Positions 7,843-62,862 of a stretch of 64,000 bases of DNA are shown piece by piece. The stretch lies in IMG/VR virus record IMGVR_UViG_3300028886_000051; one strand, given 5' to 3'. Position 1 is the stretch's first letter. The number at the start of each line of letters is the position of its first letter. A program made the translations under genes and the position numbers. Origin of the DNA: a virus (lineage: Duplodnaviria > Caudoviricetes). The notes under the pieces were generated by a model. The model ran no database searches. It was not told the origin of the DNA and saw only the letters and a program-made list of their open reading frames with translations.

Positions 7843-7904
7843 AATCCAAGTAAAGACGGATTTCTCGTCCGTCATTTATATGAAATGAAAGAGAGGTATA
7901 AAAT

Positions 7905-13783: not shown

Positions 13784-14041
13784 ATGGAAACAAGGATAGA
13801 AAAGAAGATAAAGTTTAAAAACTTTGAAGAAGTTGCTAACTTTATTGACGATATGACTTCGGTAAATACTGACGTAGATGTGATTAGCAATAAATACATA
13901 GTATCAGCAAAATCTATTATGGGTTTATTAACATTAGATTTAAGTAAGATCTTGGACATCTATTTTTATGGTAATGAAGAATCAGAGGATTTTAAGAAAT
14001 TTATTGACATAGTTGAAAAATATGCACCAGAAAGGAATTAA
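13784..14041 (+). CDS. HPr-like protein lacking His15
   Basis: VSAKSIMGLLTL Ser46 motif; no His in the protein; AAGGAGG RBS. Confidence 0.8.
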   Translation: METRIEKKIKFKNFEEVANFIDDMTSVNTDVDVISNKYIVSAKSIMGLLTLDLSKILDIYFYGNEESEDFKKFIDIVEKYAPERN

Positions 14042-14045
14042 TTAT

Positions 14046-14701
14046 ATGTATATGATAAATGATAACCATATAGATTTATATAACGTTACAGTAGGCGATT
14101 GTATAGATTTATATGAATTTAAAGGTATAGTTTCAATTCTTAGTGATGGAATGTTGCTTGGATTTGAAAAAGATAGCTGTTTTGAGGGTAAATAGGGTAA
14201 AAATATGACAATATGTACAGATAAATGTACTTCTTGTGTTAATGGAGAGTTAATACAGAAGTCAAGGGCAGATATAAAAATACGTTGTGAAGCAAAAGAT
14301 AAACTTCTACCTTATGGGTGTAAAGTAGAATGTGAATTTTTTGAAAAGAAAAAGGGAGAATAATATGGGTGTAAATATAATTATATTAATTTTAATTGGT
14401 ATTTTTCTTTTAAATTGTTTATTTTGTTTTGCAATGTGTAAAGCAGCATCAGATTTTGATGATATTTCAGATTTAAAAGAAAGTGAGGAAAATAATTATT
14501 TTACCAATAATGACAACACATTCATTAGCTAGAGAATTATTGGAAAAGCCTGACGGATTCGTGACTGCAACTATTGAAGGTAAAGAATTTGCAGTCACAG
14601 GATTCCGAAGAATGGCAACTTGTGCAAATTATGATGATACAAGTTTATATTGGACTTTAGTGTTAAGTGAATGCGAAAATAATAAAAATAAAAAAGTATG
14701 A
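14046..14701 (+). other. Cluster of short hypothetical ORFs, including a small membrane protein (~14365-14532)
   Basis: Tightly packed short ORFs with RBS-like sequences. Confidence 0.45.
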
Positions 14702-14791
14702 TGTGTAAAACCCTTGTAAAATAAGGGTTTCAGAGGTTTAAAATTACAATGAAAGGTTGATTTCTTGTGGAATTAAGAAAGGAGATAAAAT

Positions 14792-17017
14792 TTGAAAGTA
14801 ATTAAAAGAGATGGTCGAAAAGTTGATTTTGACCGTAACAAAATTATAAAAGCGGTTCTTGCTGCTTTCAATGAGGTAGATGGTGAAATTACCACAGAAG
14901 CAAAAAGAAAGGCTACAGTAATTACAAATCACATTGAATCATTAAATAAGAAGTCTATGAATGTTGAAGGTATTCAGGACATTATTGAAACGATGCTTAT
15001 GGATGGTAAGCGCAAAGATGTTGCTAGAGCATTTGTGATTTACAGAAATGACAGGACGAGAGAAAGAGAAAAACATAGCGACATTGTAAAGCGTGTTATG
15101 AAAAGAGTAAATGCAACAGATGTTCAGAACGCTAATGCTAATGTGGATGAAAAGAGTTTTTCTGGTAGAGAAAAAGAAGCGTCTGCCGATGTAGGAAAGA
15201 CCATTGCATTAGATTACGGTGGATTAAGCAAAGAGGTCGCACAGGCTCATAAAGATATGCTTATATATCAACATGATTTGGAAAAAGCAATTTATGGAGT
15301 GCATAATTGTCTTAATCTTGACTTTGGAGAAATTTTTACATACGGATTTAAGACACGCAATGGTGATGTAAGACCTCCAAAATCTTTCAGTACAGCTTGT
15401 CAGTTGGTTGCAGTAGCTTTTCAATGTCAGAGTCAGGTTCAGTTTGGAGGAGTTGGAAGTATTCATTTAGACTATGACTTAGCTCCTTTTGTAAAAATGA
15501 GTTTTTCAAAACACTTTAAAGATGGACTTAAATGGGTTGAAAATGAATCAGAAGATTATATTAATCATGTTCCAAAGTCTATTGGTATAGAAGATTTAGA
15601 AGCTAAATCACATAAAAAAGCATATGAATATGCTATGACAATGCTTGAAAATGAAGGTCAACAGTCAGCACAAGGATTATATCATAATTTAAATACTCTT
15701 GAATCACGTCAAGGCTCGCAAGTGCCATTCACTAGCATCAATCTTGGACGAGATACTTCACCAGAGGGAAGATTGGTTACTAAATGGATTATGAATGCAA
15801 GTATTGATGGTATTGGTGAACATCATTTAACAAGTATTTTTCCTATTAGTATTTTTCAATACAAAAATGGTGTTAATGCAAAACCAGGAGATCCAAATTA
15901 TGATTTGAAACAATTGGCATTAAAATCTATGTCAAAAAGAATTTATCCTAACTGGTGCAACGGAAATTGGTCACAGGCACATGAAGATGAAGATGATCCA
16001 GATACATTTTTCTCAACAATGGGCTGCCGTACTTTAGTTGGATATGACCGTCATGGGTTAGGTTATATTCGTCAGGGAAGAGGTAATAATGTACCAAATA
16101 CAATTATTTTGCCTAAGCTTGGCATTGAATATGGTATTTGTCTAGGCAAAAGAGATAAAGCAGATTTAGATGGATTTTGGAACGGTCTTGAAAATGCTTT
16201 ACAGTTATGTGAAAAAGGATTACTTGAAAGGTATGAATTAATCAAAAAACAGTCACCAAAATCAGCACCTTTCATGTATCAGAATCACACTATGAAAGGT
16301 TCAAGAGATTGTACTGAGACAGTAGAAAATGCAGTGAAACATAATACTCTTGGAATTGGATTGATTGGCGTTGCTGAAATGTGTGTTGCCTTATTTGGTA
16401 AAAATCATGCAGAGGATGAAAATATACACGCATTTGCATTATCAGTAGTTAAGAGAATATATGATTATGCAAAAGAAGCCAGTGAAAGAAATGATTTGAA
16501 TTTTGGATGTTATTTTACTCCGGCTGAAGGACTCTGTAGAACAGCATTAAAGGCATTAAGAGAACAATATGGTGTGATTCCAAATGTTACAAGCCATGAA
16601 TATCTTACTAATTCAGTGCACGTGCCAGTATGGCAGAAAGTTTCTATTTATGACAAATTAAGAATTGAAGCTCCATTTACAAAGTATGCAACATCAGGAT
16701 GTATCACTTACATAGAACTTGAATCTACTTTTGTACAGAATACAAAAGCTATAGAAGATATTATTGATTATGCTTTTAATGAGTTAGATATTCCTTATTT
16801 AGCATTTAATTTCCCAATTGATAGTTGTTTAGACTGTGGATACCAAGGTGAATTTAATAATGAATGCCCTCAGTGTGGAAGCAAAAACATTCAACAGTTG
16901 AGACGTGTGACAGGATACCTCACTACGGACTACCGCAATTTTAACGAAGGAAAACAAGCAGAAGTAGAAGAAAGAGTAAAGCATAGTGCATATACAAGCT
17001 TTGGAGATGAGAAATAA
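14792..17017 (+). CDS. nrdD: Anaerobic (class III) ribonucleoside-triphosphate reductase
   Basis: ATP cone VIKRDG, MGCRT, TPAEG, CxxC..CxxC, RRVTGYL glycyl-radical loop. Confidence 0.97.
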   Translation: MKVIKRDGRKVDFDRNKIIKAVLAAFNEVDGEITTEAKRKATVITNHIESLNKKSMNVEGIQDIIETMLMDGKRKDVARAFVIYRNDRTREREKHSDIVKRVMKRVNATDVQNANANVDEKSFSGREKEASADVGKTIALDYGGLSKEVAQAHKDMLIYQHDLEKAIYGVHNCLNLDFGEIFTYGFKTRNGDVRPPKSFSTACQLVAVAFQCQSQVQFGGVGSIHLDYDLAPFVKMSFSKHFKDGLKWVENESEDYINHVPKSIGIEDLEAKSHKKAYEYAMTMLENEGQQSAQGLYHNLNTLESRQGSQVPFTSINLGRDTSPEGRLVTKWIMNASIDGIGEHHLTSIFPISIFQYKNGVNAKPGDPNYDLKQLALKSMSKRIYPNWCNGNWSQAHEDEDDPDTFFSTMGCRTLVGYDRHGLGYIRQGRGNNVPNTIILPKLGIEYGICLGKRDKADLDGFWNGLENALQLCEKGLLERYELIKKQSPKSAPFMYQNHTMKGSRDCTETVENAVKHNTLGIGLIGVAEMCVALFGKNHAEDENIHAFALSVVKRIYDYAKEASERNDLNFGCYFTPAEGLCRTALKALREQYGVIPNVTSHEYLTNSVHVPVWQKVSIYDKLRIEAPFTKYATSGCITYIELESTFVQNTKAIEDIIDYAFNELDIPYLAFNFPIDSCLDCGYQGEFNNECPQCGSKNIQQLRRVTGYLTTDYRNFNEGKQAEVEERVKHSAYTSFGDEK

Positions 17018-17523
17018 TGTTACATATTGCAGGTGTGAATTATGAATCTATCGCAGATTCTGACGGTGTTTCATGTGTGATTTTCTTTAGCGGTTGTAAA
17101 CATTTTTGCAAAGGATGCCATTCAAAAGATACATGGGATTTCAATTATGGAATCCCTGTATCAGATGAATTAGCAATAACAATCAATAATGAAATAGATA
17201 AAAGACCATTCTTATCAGCTCTTGTATTGAGTGGCGGCGATCCAATGTATTCATCGTCAGAAGTATTAGAATTTATATCAAAAATCCACATACCCAACAA
17301 TACAATTTGGTGTTATTCTGGATTCTTAATCGAAGAAATTCAACAAAATTCAGAAATGAAAAAATTACTAGACAAGTGCAATATATTAATAGATGGTCAA
17401 TTTGAGATTGAAAAAAGAGTGATTAATTCTGGGTTTTATGGTAGTAGTAATCAAAGAATTTGGAGAAAAAATAAAAATGGTGAGTGGTTTATAGATTCTT
17501 CACGCTCTCCACATATTCAGTAA
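17017..17523 (+). CDS. nrdG: Anaerobic RNR activating radical-SAM protein (complete copy)
   Basis: CKHFCKGC, LSGGDP, IWCYSG, IDGQF, GSSNQR. Confidence 0.93.
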   Translation: MLHIAGVNYESIADSDGVSCVIFFSGCKHFCKGCHSKDTWDFNYGIPVSDELAITINNEIDKRPFLSALVLSGGDPMYSSSEVLEFISKIHIPNNTIWCYSGFLIEEIQQNSEMKKLLDKCNILIDGQFEIEKRVINSGFYGSSNQRIWRKNKNGEWFIDSSRSPHIQ

Positions 17524-17644
17524 GTATCTTATTGATGAGATTGGTTAATGAACGTCCATCTTTCTTAGCGAGTTCTTCTAATTTAGCTTTCATGTCTTTG
17601 TTCATATTAACAAGTACACCAGTTTTATCTTTACCGACAGCCAT
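17489..17644 (-). CDS. Ribbon-helix-helix (CopG/Arc-like) regulator
   Basis: GGAGGTG RBS; VLVNM...KAKLEELAKKDGRSLTNLINKIL. Confidence 0.85.
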   Translation of the reverse strand: MAVGKDKTGVLVNMNKDMKAKLEELAKKDGRSLTNLINKILTEYVESVKNL

Positions 17645-17666
17645 ATTATCACCTCCGTTTGAGAGA

Positions 17667-17742
17667 ATAATAACATATAGAACAGTTATAGTCAAGTTAT
17701 ATAACTTTCTGCTTGACAAAGGTTATATAACGGTTATATAAT
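17667..17742. promoter_or_regulatory. Divergent sigma70-type promoters for RHH and tnpB with GTTATATAAC palindromic repeats
   Basis: + strand TTGACA(17713)-N18-TATAAT(17737); - strand TTGACT(17695)-N17-TATTAT; repeats at 17696, 17722, 17733 and a half site at 17685. Confidence 0.7.
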
Positions 17743-17767
17743 CTAATCAGAAAAGAGGTGAAACAAT

Positions 17768-18982
17768 TTGAAGGTACAAAGATGTGAGCAGCATAATATA
17801 AAGTATGGAACTGATTTTTATAAATTTATTGATGAAATGTGTTTCAAGTCAAAGAATTTATACAATTATGCAAATTATATTATTCGTCAAGAGTTTATAA
17901 ATAATAGAAATTGGATTCAATATAATCAGTTATTTCATTTAGTTAAAGAATCCGAACCTTATAAGGATATTGGCAATAATACAGGTCAAGGTACTTTAAG
18001 AATTTTAGACAAAGCTTGGAAATCTTTTTTTAAGTCAATTAAAGATTGGAAGAAGAATCCAAATAAATATTTAGGTAGACCTAAACTTCCAAAATATTTA
18101 AAAAAGGATGGACGTTTTGTACTGTCCCTTGATAGCAACAAAGTGAAGTTGAAAGATGAATATGTATATTTTGCATGGAAGCCATTTAAACCATACAATA
18201 ATATGTTTAAGACAAACGCACAAGAGAGAATATTACAATGCAGATTCATTCCTAGATGTAGGAAGTATGTAATGGAAATCGTCTATGAAATCGAAGTACC
18301 AGACGTTTCAGAAACTTCTGATAGAGTAGCTGCTATTGATATTGGAGTTGATAATTTCATAACTATGGTAAACAACATTGGTGAAAATCCAATAGCTGTT
18401 AAAGGTGGAGTTATTAAGTCAATTAATCAGTTTTACAATAAACAGAAAGCAAATATTCAGTCAGAGTTGAAGAAAGTTAACGGAAAAGATTGGTCGAACA
18501 AGTTACAGAAACTTACAGACAAGCGGTATGAAATGATTAAATATCAGATGCATTGTATAAGTAAGTATGTAGTTGATTGGTGTGTCTTATATGGAATTGA
18601 CACATTGATTGTAGGACACAACGATGAATGGAAACAAAATAAACAAGGTATGCAGAACTTTACTTACATTCCATATGAACTATTTATTCAGATGCTTGCA
18701 TATAAATGTGAGAACAACGGAATTAGATTCATAGAAAATGAGGAAGCATATACTTCTGGAACATCATTTCTTGATAATGAAGATCCTGTAAAAGAGAACT
18801 ACAATAAGGAACGCAGAGTTCATAGAGGATTATTCATTGCAGATTGTGGAAAAAAGATAAATGCAGATGTAAATGGAGCATATCAAATATTAAAGAAGGT
18901 AATTCCTGAAGCTTTTAGCAAGGGAATAGAGGGTGCAGGTTCACACCCAACAATTATTAACTTGGCTATGCTGAGAGCGTAA
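17768..18982 (+). CDS. tnpB: RNA-guided endonuclease TnpB (no adjacent transposase)
   Basis: SKNLYN, PKLPKY, AIDIGVDN, EEAYTS, INADVNGA. Confidence 0.93.
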   Translation: MKVQRCEQHNIKYGTDFYKFIDEMCFKSKNLYNYANYIIRQEFINNRNWIQYNQLFHLVKESEPYKDIGNNTGQGTLRILDKAWKSFFKSIKDWKKNPNKYLGRPKLPKYLKKDGRFVLSLDSNKVKLKDEYVYFAWKPFKPYNNMFKTNAQERILQCRFIPRCRKYVMEIVYEIEVPDVSETSDRVAAIDIGVDNFITMVNNIGENPIAVKGGVIKSINQFYNKQKANIQSELKKVNGKDWSNKLQKLTDKRYEMIKYQMHCISKYVVDWCVLYGIDTLIVGHNDEWKQNKQGMQNFTYIPYELFIQMLAYKCENNGIRFIENEEAYTSGTSFLDNEDPVKENYNKERRVHRGLFIADCGKKINADVNGAYQILKKVIPEAFSKGIEGAGSHPTIINLAMLRA

Positions 18983-19007
18983 TGTAAAGGGGATTATAAA
19001 ACCCCAT

Positions 19008-19304
19008 GAATTCCGTATTTCCTTCCCTGAGAAAACTATCTGGTTGTATACAGGGTTTAAATGGGATGATATTATGTGTTCTTTTGCAGGATTACAAGCT
19101 GATCACGTTGTATCAAATGAGAAAGATATTGAAGCGTGGGAAAAGAGAAGAGAAATAATTTCGCTATGCGATATTCTCGTTGACGGGGAATATATAGATG
19201 AGCAGAAAGACCTTACATTGAAGTGGAGGGGTTCAAAAAACCAAAACTGTATTGATGTAAAGCAATCTCTTGCTCAGAATAAAATTGTTTTATATTGTGA
19301 TTAA
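19008..19304 (+). pseudogene. nrdG: 3' half of a second, displaced nrdG
   Basis: EFRISFPEKTIWLYTGF...DILVDGEYIDEQKDLTLKWRGSKNQ; no CxxxCxxC motif and no RBS. Confidence 0.88.
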
Positions 19305-19320
19305 AGGAGAGGAGTAACAA

Positions 19321-19875
19321 ATGCCAAGAAAAACATTAGCAAATACAGAACTACCTATTGAAGAAACAGACATAGAAGAAGGTACATTACCTTTCTTCTT
19401 AATAGATGATGAATATGGTATAGCCTGTGACCAATATTGTTATATGTTGTGTAAAAAGAAACGTGCAAATAGAACAATAAAGGACGAAGATGGCAAACCT
19501 AACCATATAGAGTCATATTGGTCTTGGACACCTTTTAAGTATACGGGTACATTTCAATCTATTATGGAAACATATGTAGAACAGAAGGAACGTGGCTTAA
19601 ATAAAAGAATAGTAAAGTCAAAGGACTTTAAGCAAATACTTGAAACATATAATAAAATTCATAAAATTATATCAAATTCATTAGATGTAGAAGGCTTAAA
19701 CAAATCTTTTATGTCAGTAACAAGTTTACTAGATCAAAAAGAAAAACTTTTACAAGAGATTTCAGAAGTACACGAACTAAAGGAAGACCTATTAAAAGAG
19801 TACAATGAATTACAAACCTTAATAAAAGAAAAACGAAAGATTATTGTAGATAAACACAAACCATTAAAAAATTAG
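19321..19875 (+). CDS. Hypothetical protein
   Basis: Strong RBS; C-terminal coiled coil. Confidence 0.7.
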   Translation: MPRKTLANTELPIEETDIEEGTLPFFLIDDEYGIACDQYCYMLCKKKRANRTIKDEDGKPNHIESYWSWTPFKYTGTFQSIMETYVEQKERGLNKRIVKSKDFKQILETYNKIHKIISNSLDVEGLNKSFMSVTSLLDQKEKLLQEISEVHELKEDLLKEYNELQTLIKEKRKIIVDKHKPLKN

Positions 19876-19887
19876 GAGGAAAAATAC

Positions 19888-20319
19888 ATGGAGACTATTA
19901 AAATTAAATATTTTGATAATGAGATAGATAAAATAGAAAAGATTAATAAGGGTGATTTAATTGACCTTCGTGCAGCAGAAACAGTAGAAATGAAAAAGGG
20001 TGATTTTAAATTAATTAAGCTCGGTGTCGGTATGAAGCTACCTGATGGATATAAAGCTAATATGTATCCACGTAGCAGTACATATAAAAATTTTGGTATT
20101 ATTTTAGCTAATAGTGTAGGACAGATTGATAATAGTTATAGCGGGGATTCAGATGAATGGAAATTTCCTGCAATAGCATTAAGGGACACAGTAATTCATA
20201 AAAATGATAGAATATGTCAATTTGAGATTCAGAGGATTCAGCCAGAGATTGAGTTTATAGAAGTTGAACATTTAGATGAAGAATCAAGAGGCGGTATTGG
20301 TTCTACTGGAATGAGATAG
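19888..20319 (+). CDS. dut: Trimeric dUTPase
   Basis: [29 protein letters not shown]. Confidence 0.95.
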
Positions 20320-20361
20320 TAAATAAAATATTAATAAGGCATAAAAAGCGAGGAGATAAAA

Positions 20362-20493
20362 ATAGACCACGAATATAAAGAAGGAAATATAAAAGTTATA
20401 ATTCAAATGCCTGAAGAAAACCCAAATGACGAAAAAATAAAAAATGAAGTAAAAAAAATAATGCAGGATGAATTGATATTTTTATTGAAATAA
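20362..20493 (+). CDS. 43-aa protein, candidate recombination directionality factor (ATA start)
   Basis: GAGGAG RBS 6 nt before ATA; open frame DHEYKEGNIKVIIQMPE...LLK; directly upstream of the serine recombinase. Confidence 0.45.
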   Translation: MDHEYKEGNIKVIIQMPEENPNDEKIKNEVKKIMQDELIFLLK

Positions 20494-20514
20494 GAAAAGT
20501 AAATGGGTATAATT

Positions 20515-20553
20515 TAGTGTATACAAATCTAATAATAATTTTTGTATACACTA
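20515..20553. promoter_or_regulatory. Perfect 13-bp inverted repeat upstream of the recombinase (operator or att-like)
   Basis: TAGTGTATACAAA-N13-TTTGTATACACTA between a TATAAT box and the RBS. Confidence 0.6.
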
Positions 20554-20574
20554 TTTTTTTTAGGAGTGATTTTA

Positions 20575-22320
20575 ATGAAGAAAGTAAGAATACTTTTAAG
20601 AGTAAGTTCCAATCAACAGTTAGAAGCCGATGGCGATTTAACAGTTCAAAGAGAAATTGTTTTAGACTATATTTCTAAACATGATGATTGGGAATTAGAT
20701 AATAAAGAATATTTTGAAGGTAGCAATAGTGGATATAAAAATGCAGTCAAAGACAGAGATGTATTGCAAGAGGCACTATCTGATGCAAAAAATAATGAGT
20801 ATGATATTCTCGTAGTATACAAAGATGATAGAATTGGTAGACGCATGTGGGAGATTGGTTCATATGTAATGCAACTAAAATCATATGGTGTTGATATTTA
20901 TACAACAAAAGATGGTTGTATATCGCCTGAAAGTAACGATGTTATGGGGCAGATGATGCTTGCGTTACGATATGGTAATGCACAAAAATCAAGCTCTGAT
21001 ACGGGACAAAGAGTAAAGGATACAGCCCAAAAACTAGTTAAACGTGGTAAATTTATGGGTGGAAAAGCACCTTATGGCTATGAGCTTGTATTGTCAGGAG
21101 AATTATCTAAACATGGAAGAGCTTTGCATAAATTAAAGAAAATACCAGAACAAGTAGAAGTTGTGAAATATATATATGATTTATCATTAAATAAGGAATT
21201 TGGTTCATCTAAAATTGCAAAAATTTTAAATGAGGATACTTATTATCATAGTTTAGCACCAAATGACGATTGGAAAAATGGAACAGTTACCTCAATTTTA
21301 ACAAATCCTATTTATTGTGGAATTACTGCTTATAAACGAAGAGAAAAAATTGATGGTAAATATCATTCTTTAGATTCAAAAGATTGGGTTTATGCAGATA
21401 AAATAAATGAAGAAATTGCAATAATAGACAAAGATATTTGGAACAATGTACAAGAAAAAAGAAGTAATCGTTCAGTGAGATATAGAGAAGGGGTATTAAA
21501 GGAAAAGGGGATAAATGTACTATTAAGAAATGACGGAGAATTGGCATTAATTGATGTTGCGTATTGTGGATATTGTGGCAGAAAATTAACAAATGGAACT
21601 AAATACAATTATTGGACAATAAAAGGTACTGGCGAAAAAAGAGCAAGTAAAATTCCAATATATAAATGTCAAACTGCTTGGTCTGGTGTTCCACATGATA
21701 GTACAAAAATGTATAGAGCTGATAAAATAGAAGAAATTGTTTTTAAATATGTAGCACAATATATTTCTATTTTACAAGATAATTCAGAAGTATATGAAAA
21801 GATACAAGAGAATAATAAAAAAGAAAGAGAATTATTTAACCAAAAAATAAAGAAAGAGAAACAAGAACTTGATAAAATAATTGATGGAATAGAAGTAATG
21901 AAAAGCCATCTTCCAGAAGCAATGTTGGGAAATTATCCATTAAGTGTTGAAATCATTGCTGATACAATAAAACAATTTGAAGAAAAAGAAAAAATACAAA
22001 AACAAAAAATACAAGAATTAAAGCAACAATATGAAGAAATGGAAATCGAAGAACAGGATTGGGATGAAGTATGTAAAATCATTCCTTCATGGATAGAAGT
22101 TTTTAATAATGCAGATAAAAAAACTAAACGTGTCTTAATCAATAAATTAGTTGATAAGGTTATTATCAAAAAAGATGAAATAACAGTTAAATTTAAGATA
22201 AATCTTAGTAAGCCCAGGCAACTCCAACCACGAATAAGTGAATACAATGGGGTACAGGAACAGCTACTCATTCGTGGTTACAGGAACATAATATTAAAGG
22301 ATTTAATAATTCAATATTAA
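20575..22320 (+). CDS. Large serine recombinase (integrase)
   Basis: LRVSS..Q, DRIGR, GGKAPYGY, LTNPIYCG, CGYCG zinc ribbon, coiled coil. Confidence 0.95.
   Translation: MKKVRILLRVSSNQQLEADGDLTVQREIVLDYISKHDDWELDNKEYFEGSNSGYKNAVKDRDVLQEALSDAKNNEYDILVVYKDDRIGRRMWEIGSYVMQLKSYGVDIYTTKDGCISPESNDVMGQMMLALRYGNAQKSSSDTGQRVKDTAQKLVKRGKFMGGKAPYGYELVLSGELSKHGRALHKLKKIPEQVEVVKYIYDLSLNKEFGSSKIAKILNEDTYYHSLAPNDDWKNGTVTSILTNPIYCGITAYKRREKIDGKYHSLDSKDWVYADKINEEIAIIDKDIWNNVQEKRSNRSVRYREGVLKEKGINVLLRNDGELALIDVAYCGYCGRKLTNGTKYNYWTIKGTGEKRASKIPIYKCQTAWSGVPHDSTKMYRADKIEEIVFKYVAQYISILQDNSEVYEKIQENNKKERELFNQKIKKEKQELDKIIDGIEVMKSHLPEAMLGNYPLSVEIIADTIKQFEEKEKIQKQKIQELKQQYEEMEIEEQDWDEVCKIIPSWIEVFNNADKKTKRVLINKLVDKVIIKKDEITVKFKINLSKPRQLQPRISEYNGVQEQLLIRGYRNIILKDLIIQY
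22226..22279. other. Candidate attP inside the 3' end of the integrase gene
   Basis: AACCACGAATAAGT-N26-ACTCATTCGTGGTT, 13/14 inverted arms, 54 bp in total. Confidence 0.55.
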
Positions 22321-61559: not shown

Positions 61560-61657
61560 GTATAACAAAAGAGCCACTTCCCATGAAATGACTCTTTTCC
61601 AAAATTACCTATTAAATTTTGCCGATAAAAATCTCAATCTATCGGTATATTTACCGT

Positions 61658-62862
61658 TTATGTTGTCACGTTGACAATCAATGGATGTAGACCTACACCC
61701 TCTATCCCGTCCGAAAATACATTCGGGAATGCCTTTTTCATAATTTGATATGCAGCGTTAATATCAGCATTTATTTTTATATTATTATTACTAATAAACA
61801 AACCTCTTTGAATACGTCTATCTTTATTATAATTTTCTTTACATGGAATTTCTGAATCAAGAAATGAAGTTCCAGATGTATATGATTCTTCAATTACAAT
61901 ATATTTAATGCCATTATTTTCACATTTATATTTTAGAATCTTGAAGAATAATTCATATGGTATATATGTGAAGTTTTGCATATTCTTAGTATTTTGTTTC
62001 CAACCATTGTTATGACCTATTACAAGAGTATCTACATCATATAAAACACAATAGTCGATTATGTATTTGCTGACACAGTGCATATAATTTTTTATTTTTC
62101 ATATCTTTTATCGGTTAATTTCTGAAGCCCTTTTGACCAATCATTACCATTTACTTTCTTTAATTCTGATTGCATTTCAGATTTTTTCTTATTATAATAT
62201 TGATTTATAGATTTGATAGCACCACCTTTGATAACAAAAGGTTGTTCACCAAAATTATTTACGACACTAACGAAATTTTCTACACCAACATCAATACTTA
62301 TAATTCTCTCTGAAAAAACTAAGCAATCCACAGTATCAATTTCATAAACTATTTCCATTACATAATGATTTCCTTTAGGAATAAATCTGCATTGTATTAT
62401 TCTATCTCTAACCTTTGTTTTGAACCGATTATTAAATGGTTTGAATGGACTCCAAGCAAAATACACATAACCGTCTTTTAATTTAACTTTATTGCTATCA
62501 AGAGCCAAAGTGTAACGACCATCTTTAGGTTTGTACCTTGGCATTTTTGGCATACCAAGATATTTAGAATGATTCTTCTTCCAATCTTTAATAGAAACAA
62601 AGAACGCCTTCCAAGCCTTATCCAACATTCTTAAAGTGGCTTGTCCTGTATTACTACCAATTTCCTTATAAGGTTCTGAATCTTTTACCATTTCAAATAA
62701 CTTATTATATCCAATCCAATTATTATTGGTAATAAACTCTTGCCTTATAATATAATTGGCATAGTTGTAAAGGTTCTTTGACTTTAAGCAGTAATTGTCT
62801 ATGAATCTTCCGAAATCTGTATTTAATTTTATGATATGTTGTTCACATCTTTGTACTTTCAT
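61658..62862 (-). pseudogene. tnpB: Second tnpB, split by a 1-nt deletion at ~62095
   Basis: Both ORFs are collinear with tnpB 17768-18982 (same MKVQRCEQH start); adding one A restores RYEKIKNYMH. Confidence 0.9.

Follow-up and report, generated by a model that had tools for sequence, protein, structure and literature searches.

Among the closest described systems to the locus reported here are the TnpB nucleases of IS200/IS605 and IS607 elements (ISDra2, PDB 8h1j/8exa; ISGst, bioRxiv 10.1101/2023.03.14.532601; and a plasmid gene drive, PMC11870625). Published work already includes TnpB homing, TnpA-independent drive on plasmids (PMC11870625, PMC13565253) and Arc-tnpB pairs. Here we analyze a 64,000-nt stretch of Caudoviricetes phage DNA (IMG/VR record IMGVR_UViG_3300028886_000051; the whole stretch is called the window), in which nrdD, a complete replacement nrdG (nrdG′), a ribbon-helix-helix (RHH) gene and an intact tnpB precede the 3′ half of a second, displaced nrdG (Table 1). 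Our best reading of this block, to which we assign a probability of about 0.6, is that it is a transposase-less, RNA-guided (intronless) homing cassette.

With the transposon systems the locus shares the TnpB fold, a predicted ω-RNA of ~117 nt that overlaps the end of the gene, a terminal pseudoknot, a guide apparently drawn from the right flank, an element end slightly unlike the predicted target-adjacent motif (TAM), and stand-alone ω-RNAs as in PATEs. Unlike them, it has no TnpA and no left end, its predicted target is a homologous allele rather than a simple empty donor joint, its right end is a phage recombination dyad, and it carries ~2.7 kb of replacement genes. Arc-encoding IS605 elements have a small RHH gene divergent from tnpB and a bidirectional promoter, and arc-tnpB pairs without tnpA are known (bioRxiv 10.64898/2026.09.24.754181); the divergent arrangement recurs here, but our RHH gene is fused into the end of a phage gene and there are no transposon ends. 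Like the RIIr TnpBs (PMC10691335) and TvTnpB (PMC10530073), the window TnpB has Gly at the RuvC-II Glu and an alternative Glu ~45 residues downstream, but its predicted TAM is (G)AAAT, not NTGAC, and it is bound to phage slots.

Two further groups resemble the locus in layout. In T-even phages, free-standing endonucleases (SegF, SegB and Mob, PMC13565253; HEG-islands, PMC10448857) lie beside a conserved gene, cut the rival allele and co-convert neighboring essential genes, as we propose here, whereas the present system would be RNA-guided, would distinguish self from nonself by a TAM base, has discrete dyad boundaries and could be retargeted by moving to another dyad. Fungal mitochondrial mORFs (Allomyces and Glomus atp6; PMC3630166) have the same arrangement of foreign replacement part, nuclease and displaced native C-terminal half; those are hybrid genes with LAGLIDADG or GIY-YIG nucleases, whereas here the nuclease is TnpB, the replacement is a whole nrdD–nrdG pair, and the displaced half would supply the guide. 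Our literature searches, incomplete in coverage, turned up neither TnpB homing that carries replacement genes nor an ω-RNA end fused to a phage recombination dyad.

The block, its boundaries and its movement

A preliminary description of the window had proposed this set of genes, and profile matches and coordinates bear it out: the order is nrdD, complete nrdG′, RHH, intact tnpB and nrdG 3′ remnant. The nrdD allele is of a type that has 25–53% identity to nrdD of most relatives and 98% identity to that of L108. The last codons of nrdG′ overlap the 3′ end of RHH, whose stop codon falls within nrdG′ codons 157–158. The remnant shares 25% amino acid identity with nrdG′, compared with DNA identity of up to 85% with the intact nrdG genes of relatives. 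Homology to the latter begins at 19004–19009, that is, 22–27 nt past the tnpB stop, which agrees with the earlier placing of the remnant ~25 nt after that stop and behind a GGGG-N9-CCCC hairpin. A GAAW-N6-TTTC dyad is present at both block ends (14751 and 19008), and in relatives with the uninterrupted nrdG, which the preliminary description had proposed as a check, the right one lies inside the intact gene. The remnant appears to be the template of the guide, and it is probably also the right homology arm.

The moving unit comprises nrdD, nrdG′, RHH and tnpB between two copies of the dyad, and it travels as a unit. Sequencing run X4 (sheep gut) contains 14751–18990 with 0–1 differences per contig, in flanks that differ before 14751 and after 19054 and with a right flank that matches an L044-type allele, and L290 carries the whole block at 86–97% identity, followed by 63% after 19043. 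Four block carriers hold different remnants; those of the window, L290 and L334 are ~71% alike where aligned, and the closest intact allele is different for each. The earlier proposal that RHH-TnpB travels with a replacement nrdG is thus upheld as to joint spread and amended as to composition, as nrdD belongs to the unit and dyads bound it.

Dyads as exchange points of the phage family

The dyads of this phage behave as exchange points. Among 113 related loci, alignment ends cluster on the dyad motif (27 starts at offset 0 vs. 0.25 expected), and the accessory arm of this genome has 25 dyad sites with 25 different spacers, compared with 5.9 in shuffles. We refer to the spacer of a dyad as its address. 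In relatives, several unrelated nrdG 5′ halves, accompanied in each case by an nrdD type of its own, are joined in frame to 3′ halves at the TCCGTA site, and nrdG is chimeric at this dyad in most of 80 relatives; since the chimeras join at the mid-gene dyad, the ordinary exchange cassette is nrdD plus the 5′ half of nrdG. Empty (TnpB-free) dyad alleles mostly have GAAA before the spacer. GAAT was considered as a mark unique to TnpB ends and rejected, as many TnpB-free dyads read GAAT. Also rejected was the idea that recombination itself requires a matching first spacer base, as close relatives in the group with AGAA ends (below) take C, G or T.

Candidates to act on the dyads are two encoded tyrosine recombinases whose catalytic motifs appear intact (L125:1462-2442 and L126:1054-2100). 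Directly upstream of the left dyad, at 14710–14745 of the window, is a short inverted repeat of the AAACCCTT...AAGGGTTT type, and similar hairpins lie ahead of several other dyads. In SPbeta, the SPBRE/MrpR operator is a 15-bp repressor-binding repeat (PMC10516654). The nrdD alleles in L001–L080 fall into very divergent classes (~25% and ~50% identity), and inteins, introns or extra open reading frames (ORFs) often lie between nrdD and nrdG in these loci, so that the slot is a hotspot of selfish elements.

The predicted ω-RNA scaffold and start of the guide

In the predicted ω-RNA scaffold, the loop at 18939–18943 (GTTCA) forms a pseudoknot with 19007–19011 (TGAAT); a terminal pseudoknot is known in ISDra2 ω-RNA (PMC10097598). 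Pairing across the four helices, pseudoknot included, reaches 93% in a 36-sequence alignment (0 of 500 shuffles; 33–51% in slid controls), with 93 two-sided changes, although these controls are lenient in that the structure was derived from the same sequences. The five bases ahead of the last scaffold base covary with the loop of a conserved GGGTG/CACCC hairpin, the pairs being GTTCA/TGAAT (window), TTCTA/TAGAA, GGTTA/TAACC and TAGTT/AACTA, and among phage loci alone the pseudoknot has 3.86 Watson–Crick pairs vs. 3.39 in shuffles (0 of 2000). By itself, the scaffold did not give a significant minimum-energy fold (z −1.5), and an Rfam search of 14000–20500 gave no match.

Of 103 distinct 3′ ends, 73 run into a hairpin-AT-(GAAT, AAAT, AGAA or AGAT)-N6-TTT dyad, and related phage TnpBs end at the dyad arm at >50 different spacers. 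In chromosomal sister elements the end is instead TAACCT or AGCTAT, one base past the same pseudoknot, with variable DNA beyond. Because the pseudoknot occupies 19007–19011 and the sister elements end one base later, the scaffold most likely ends at 19012 and the guide most likely begins at 19013 (CCGTATTTCC...); on the same grounds, a start at 19011, as given in the preliminary description, or at 19012 was rejected. Thus, that description's choice of the remnant as template can be kept, by inference, with a start 2 nt later. An exact search of viral contigs for the hairpin-plus-site junction gave no match.

The first spacer base, the predicted TAM and the TnpB protein

Base 19012 is at once the last scaffold base and the first base of the dyad spacer, and its identity follows the type of TnpB. 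The base is T in 18 of 18 cases with N71-type proteins and C in 11 of 12 with Q56 (Fisher p = 2e-7, uncorrected for kinship, and the counts are not independent of ancestry); all three spacers of K56-type TnpBs start with G. In the AGAA-ended group the base may be C, G or T. At residue 56, F is paired with T, Q with C, K with G, and N with a free base. Mosaic TnpBs combine a window-like C-terminal half (85–98%) with a foreign N-terminal half (47–52%), and in them the first base follows the N-terminal half. The base also fits the N-terminal tree better than the C-terminal one (15 vs. 19 changes), with swapped pairs L170/G038b and L094/L085. The covarying positions align with ISDra2 residues 52–56 and 75–80, which contact TAM bases −1 to −4 (PMC10097598). 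The simplest reading of these comparative data is that the TAM of the window TnpB would be (G)AAAT.

The protein itself scores 176 bits against NF040570 (cut-off 100), and the best Foldseek matches of its model are to ISDra2 TnpB (8h1j/8exa), the model being confident only in its N-terminal half. Its RuvC site is rearranged (D191, alternative E326 and D367, with Gly at the canonical RuvC-II Glu), there is no zinc finger, and every listed homologue retains the catalytic triad. This assessment of the active site comes from alignment, as the AlphaFold model is poor beyond residue 176. Rearranged-RuvC TnpBs make up the RIIr groups (PMC10691335), and TvTnpB, which has such a site, cleaves DNA (PMC10530073).

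Predicted targets and self-protection

A TAM beside the intact target was among the features to check in the preliminary description, and the AAAT of the predicted TAM stands ahead of the guide match in 54 of 61 distinct intact nrdG contexts. The first 9 nt of the guide are matched perfectly in 49 of these 61, and AAAT together with ≤1 mismatch in 12 nt is found in 45. The element's own end reads GAATT, compared with GAAAT at empty alleles. Because the guide DNA itself remains in the genome, loss of the predicted TAM at this end would be the main means of self-protection. The earlier suggestion that the resident nrdG is immune agrees with its mismatch to the guide (Table 1), but mismatch does not appear to be the main safeguard.

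In its own genome, no AAAT site has <2 mismatches to the guide. The closest self site is the reverse reading of the GACGGA dyad (window ~7850–7870), with a left arm that is TAAA here vs. GAAA in 17 relatives; TAAA adds a second mismatch on the reverse strand, a weak hint of escape from self-cutting. Enrichment of GAAT (predicted immune) alleles at targetable addresses has p = 0.03 when counted per genome and 0.13 when counted per address. An intact nrdG with a GAATT arm, predicted to be immune, is present at L029:6004. Judged by sequence alone, the layout is that of a homing system, with a nuclease beside a conserved gene, a rival allele as predicted target and a resident allele predicted to be spared.

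Genome context, RHH, stand-alone ω-RNAs and a second tnpB

The window is part of a 145.7-kb phage record that is ~85% complete. We read the organization of the phage as SPbeta-like (serine integrase at 20542–22320, ligase, nrd genes, dUTPase and two tyrosine recombinases), and the sequencing runs that contain the stretch are from gut samples of cattle, sheep and pig; none of the listed runs is of RNA, a result that is uninformative as to expression.

By analogy with the Arc-encoding elements (bioRxiv 10.64898/2026.09.24.754181), RHH probably represses tnpB. When a covariance model derived from tnpB-linked ends alone was run on the same genome, it detected two stand-alone ω-like RNAs (E 2e-7 and 4e-10), each ending on a dyad arm and with compensatory stem changes. 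The T-type RNA at the TATCGG dyad could suit the window TnpB, and six relatives carry GAAAT plus a perfect 12-nt match to it; the other is C-type and sits at the CCGAAG dyad, and the genome record yielded no TnpB of that type. Orphan ω-like RNAs also occur in 4 of 30 relatives (L340:6319-6422, L420:12233-12336, L425:8556-8660 and L450:7911-8006), three of them at a CTGACA dyad and two of those three in genomes without a detected TnpB. Besides the 3′ ω-RNA, some tnpB genes have a weaker ω-like element ~180 nt upstream (L341:5682-5778, L361:12819-12915 and L364:7240-7335).

Table 1. Features of the nrdD–tnpB block and related elements (window coordinates unless a locus is given)
Feature	Position	Strand	Basis and remarks
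Left boundary dyad, ATGAAA-GGTTGA-TTTC	14749-14764	+	Copy of phage-wide crossover site; spacer common to many relatives upstream of nrdD
nrdD, class III ribonucleotide reductase	14792-17017	+	Pfam NRDD and ATP-cone; TIGR02487 above cut-off
nrdG′, complete replacement activase	17017-17523	+	TIGR02491 above cut-off; CxxxCxxC present; accompanies this nrdD type
Position in nrdG′ equivalent to target	17281-17305	+	AAAAT, then 9/20 matches to guide; predicted immune
RHH (Arc-type) gene, 51 aa	17489-17644	-	Pfam RHH_5/RHH_1, weak
Putative divergent sigma-70-type promoters between RHH and tnpB	17667-17742	both	Consensus match alone: 12/12 on +, 10/12 on -
tnpB, 404 aa	17768-18982	+	NF040570 above cut-off
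Predicted ω-RNA scaffold, ~117 nt	18896-19012	+	Stems and pseudoknot, terminal hairpin 18989-19005; covariation
GGGG-N9-CCCC terminal hairpin	18989-19005	+	Sequence
Right boundary dyad, GAAT-TCCGTA-TTTC	19008-19021	+	In relatives lies inside intact nrdG and reads GAAA or CAAA
nrdG 3′ remnant, displaced half of recipient's nrdG	19008-19304	+	In frame to stop at 19304; without CxxxCxxC
Predicted guide, 16-20 nt	19013-19032	+	From 3′ ends, covariation and protein-base tracking
Second tnpB, split in two ORFs (256 and 141 aa)	about 61636-62862	-	Own ω-RNA ends on dyad-like arm; other genome arm
Stand-alone ω-like RNA, T-type, no tnpB	L459:10022-10117; G000 C1 101048-101143	-	Ends GAATT at TATCGG dyad; ~10 kb before window start; strand as in L459
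Stand-alone ω-like RNA, C-type	L460:7458-7559; G000 C1 118484-118585	-	At CCGAAG dyad; strand as in L460

Proposed mechanism and rival explanations

From the observed anatomy, boundaries, unit transfer, RNA covariation and protein-to-base correlation we infer a TAM, expression, cleavage, homing and a role of RHH, which may fit together as follows. Phages of this family swap accessory genes slot by slot at GAAW-N6-TTTC dyads, one of which sits in the middle of nrdG. A TnpB lineage would have joined the 3′ end of its ω-RNA to the left arm of the dyad, with a scaffold ending in GAAT plus the first spacer base and a guide consisting of the remaining spacer, the right arm and the flank. TnpB would read (G)AAAT as its TAM at TnpB-free alleles, and its own GAATT end would be spared. 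With a second phage or prophage genome in the cell, it would cut the intact nrdG ~15–22 nt past the TAM. Donor-templated repair, with the nrdG 3′ half as right arm and, as left arm, DNA common to both genomes at the left dyad or upstream of it, would then copy in nrdD-nrdG′-RHH-tnpB, and the recipient's 3′ half would become the new remnant and guide template. The complete nrdG′ would be the condition under which TnpB can occupy an intragenic slot. The first junction was probably the work of dyad recombination, which probably still contributes; differences between the guides of carriers at positions 10 and 13 speak for this.

Several observations weigh against such homing. A perfect 12-nt match to the window guide is found in only 14 of the 61 alleles. 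At positions 10, 13 and 19 the guide of L290 departs from that of the window, a pattern that is not expected from simple leftward copying from a cut at 15–22 and that suggests crossing over at the dyad or recombination at a later time. The base correlation might arise because the protein recognizes the last RNA base and not a TAM, and it has exceptions: L316 combines a T spacer with a C-type N-terminal domain, and L104 and L334 have one more T behind the arm. The components are also found apart: the nrdD–nrdG′ pair occurs without RHH or tnpB in L108 (14752–17468, 95% nucleotide identity, with homology starting at 14752) and in more distant phages, one of which (L107) has an nrdG remnant without TnpB, and L057:5950-6276 is a remnant with part of the 5′ half and again no TnpB. 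Finally, dyads serve as exchange points without TnpB, so unit transfer alone needs no nuclease.

Close relatives of the TnpB (76–96%) occupy other dyads without nrd genes, one of them, L291, with a related RHH; since nrdD–nrdG′ is known without TnpB and TnpB relatives are known at other dyads, the partners are of separate origin. The preliminary description had asked whether tnpB and the new nrdG arrived independently, and the answer has two parts: separate origins are seen, and so is co-transfer of the partners once joined.

The block might instead be passive cargo that is swapped at dyads by a phage tyrosine recombinase or through short homology, with TnpB not the driver. We regard this as unlikely. 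It accords with dyads marking breakpoints family-wide and nrdG being chimeric at the dyad in most of the 80 relatives, with the two encoded tyrosine recombinases and their apparently intact catalytic motifs, and with the TnpB-free nrdD–nrdG′ pairs and remnants listed above. It leaves unexplained why the first base tracks the distant TAM-reading domain in swapped proteins and is free in the AGAA-ended group, why the triad and the pseudoknot are kept, and why TnpB-side ends are GAAT, AAAT or AGAW and not the common GAAA.

Alternatively, TnpB might act to exclude competitors, destroying related phages by cuts at conserved dyad addresses, and the block would spread as a by-product of ordinary recombination. 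Two stand-alone ω-like RNAs at other dyads, with which one nuclease might make several cuts, the match of the T-type one to TAM-flanked empty alleles in relatives, and the great divergence of the nrd alleles (25–53%), which limits homology for repair, can all be accommodated in this way. We consider it distinctly improbable, however, given that each guide adjoins its own insertion point, which is the geometry of homing, that homology arms lie on both sides, and that near-identical blocks are found in different flanks.

Features of a transposon were also looked for. In keeping with the preliminary description, which reported no transposase, the Y1 transposase profile (PF01797) had no match in the genome record, itself ~85% complete, and no serine transposase ORF lies beside tnpB. 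The block departs from IS200/IS605 and IS607 elements in having no TnpA, no left end, for which the RHH stop inside nrdG′ leaves no room, and flanks that belong to different nrdG alleles. That a host transposase placed an ordinary non-autonomous IS605/IS607 element beside nrdG by chance is therefore largely refuted and most improbable: Arc-tnpB elements without tnpA are known (bioRxiv 10.64898/2026.09.24.754181), distant homologues are found next to resolvases and within multi-copy chromosomal elements, and a host-encoded TnpA is possible, but upstream flanks differ among close TnpB relatives, the left and right flanks do not rejoin as one gene, and right ends are tied to the phage dyad at >50 spacers.

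Implications

We tentatively suggest, with slightly less than even confidence, that a phage-adapted TnpB lineage left transposons and co-opted gene-swap dyads as TAM-plus-address, making a multi-locus RNA-guided gene drive. If this is true, landing at any dyad would reprogram the guide to that slot, and a one-base change in the left arm would give immunity. N-terminal domain swaps would alter the usable slots, stand-alone ω-RNAs would let one nuclease drive several slots, and essential genes such as nrdD–nrdG would also be moved between phages. Naturally swapped N-terminal regions, with base changes to match, suggest that a map of TAM specificity in compact nucleases already exists.

The RNA-guided homing reading of the block makes exact predictions, namely an RNA scaffold end at 19012, a (G)AAAT TAM, and named target and immune alleles. 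If it is true, TnpB homing would reach beyond restoring a transposon and replace alleles of essential phage genes, and it would offer a driver for cassette mosaicism in a common gut phage family.

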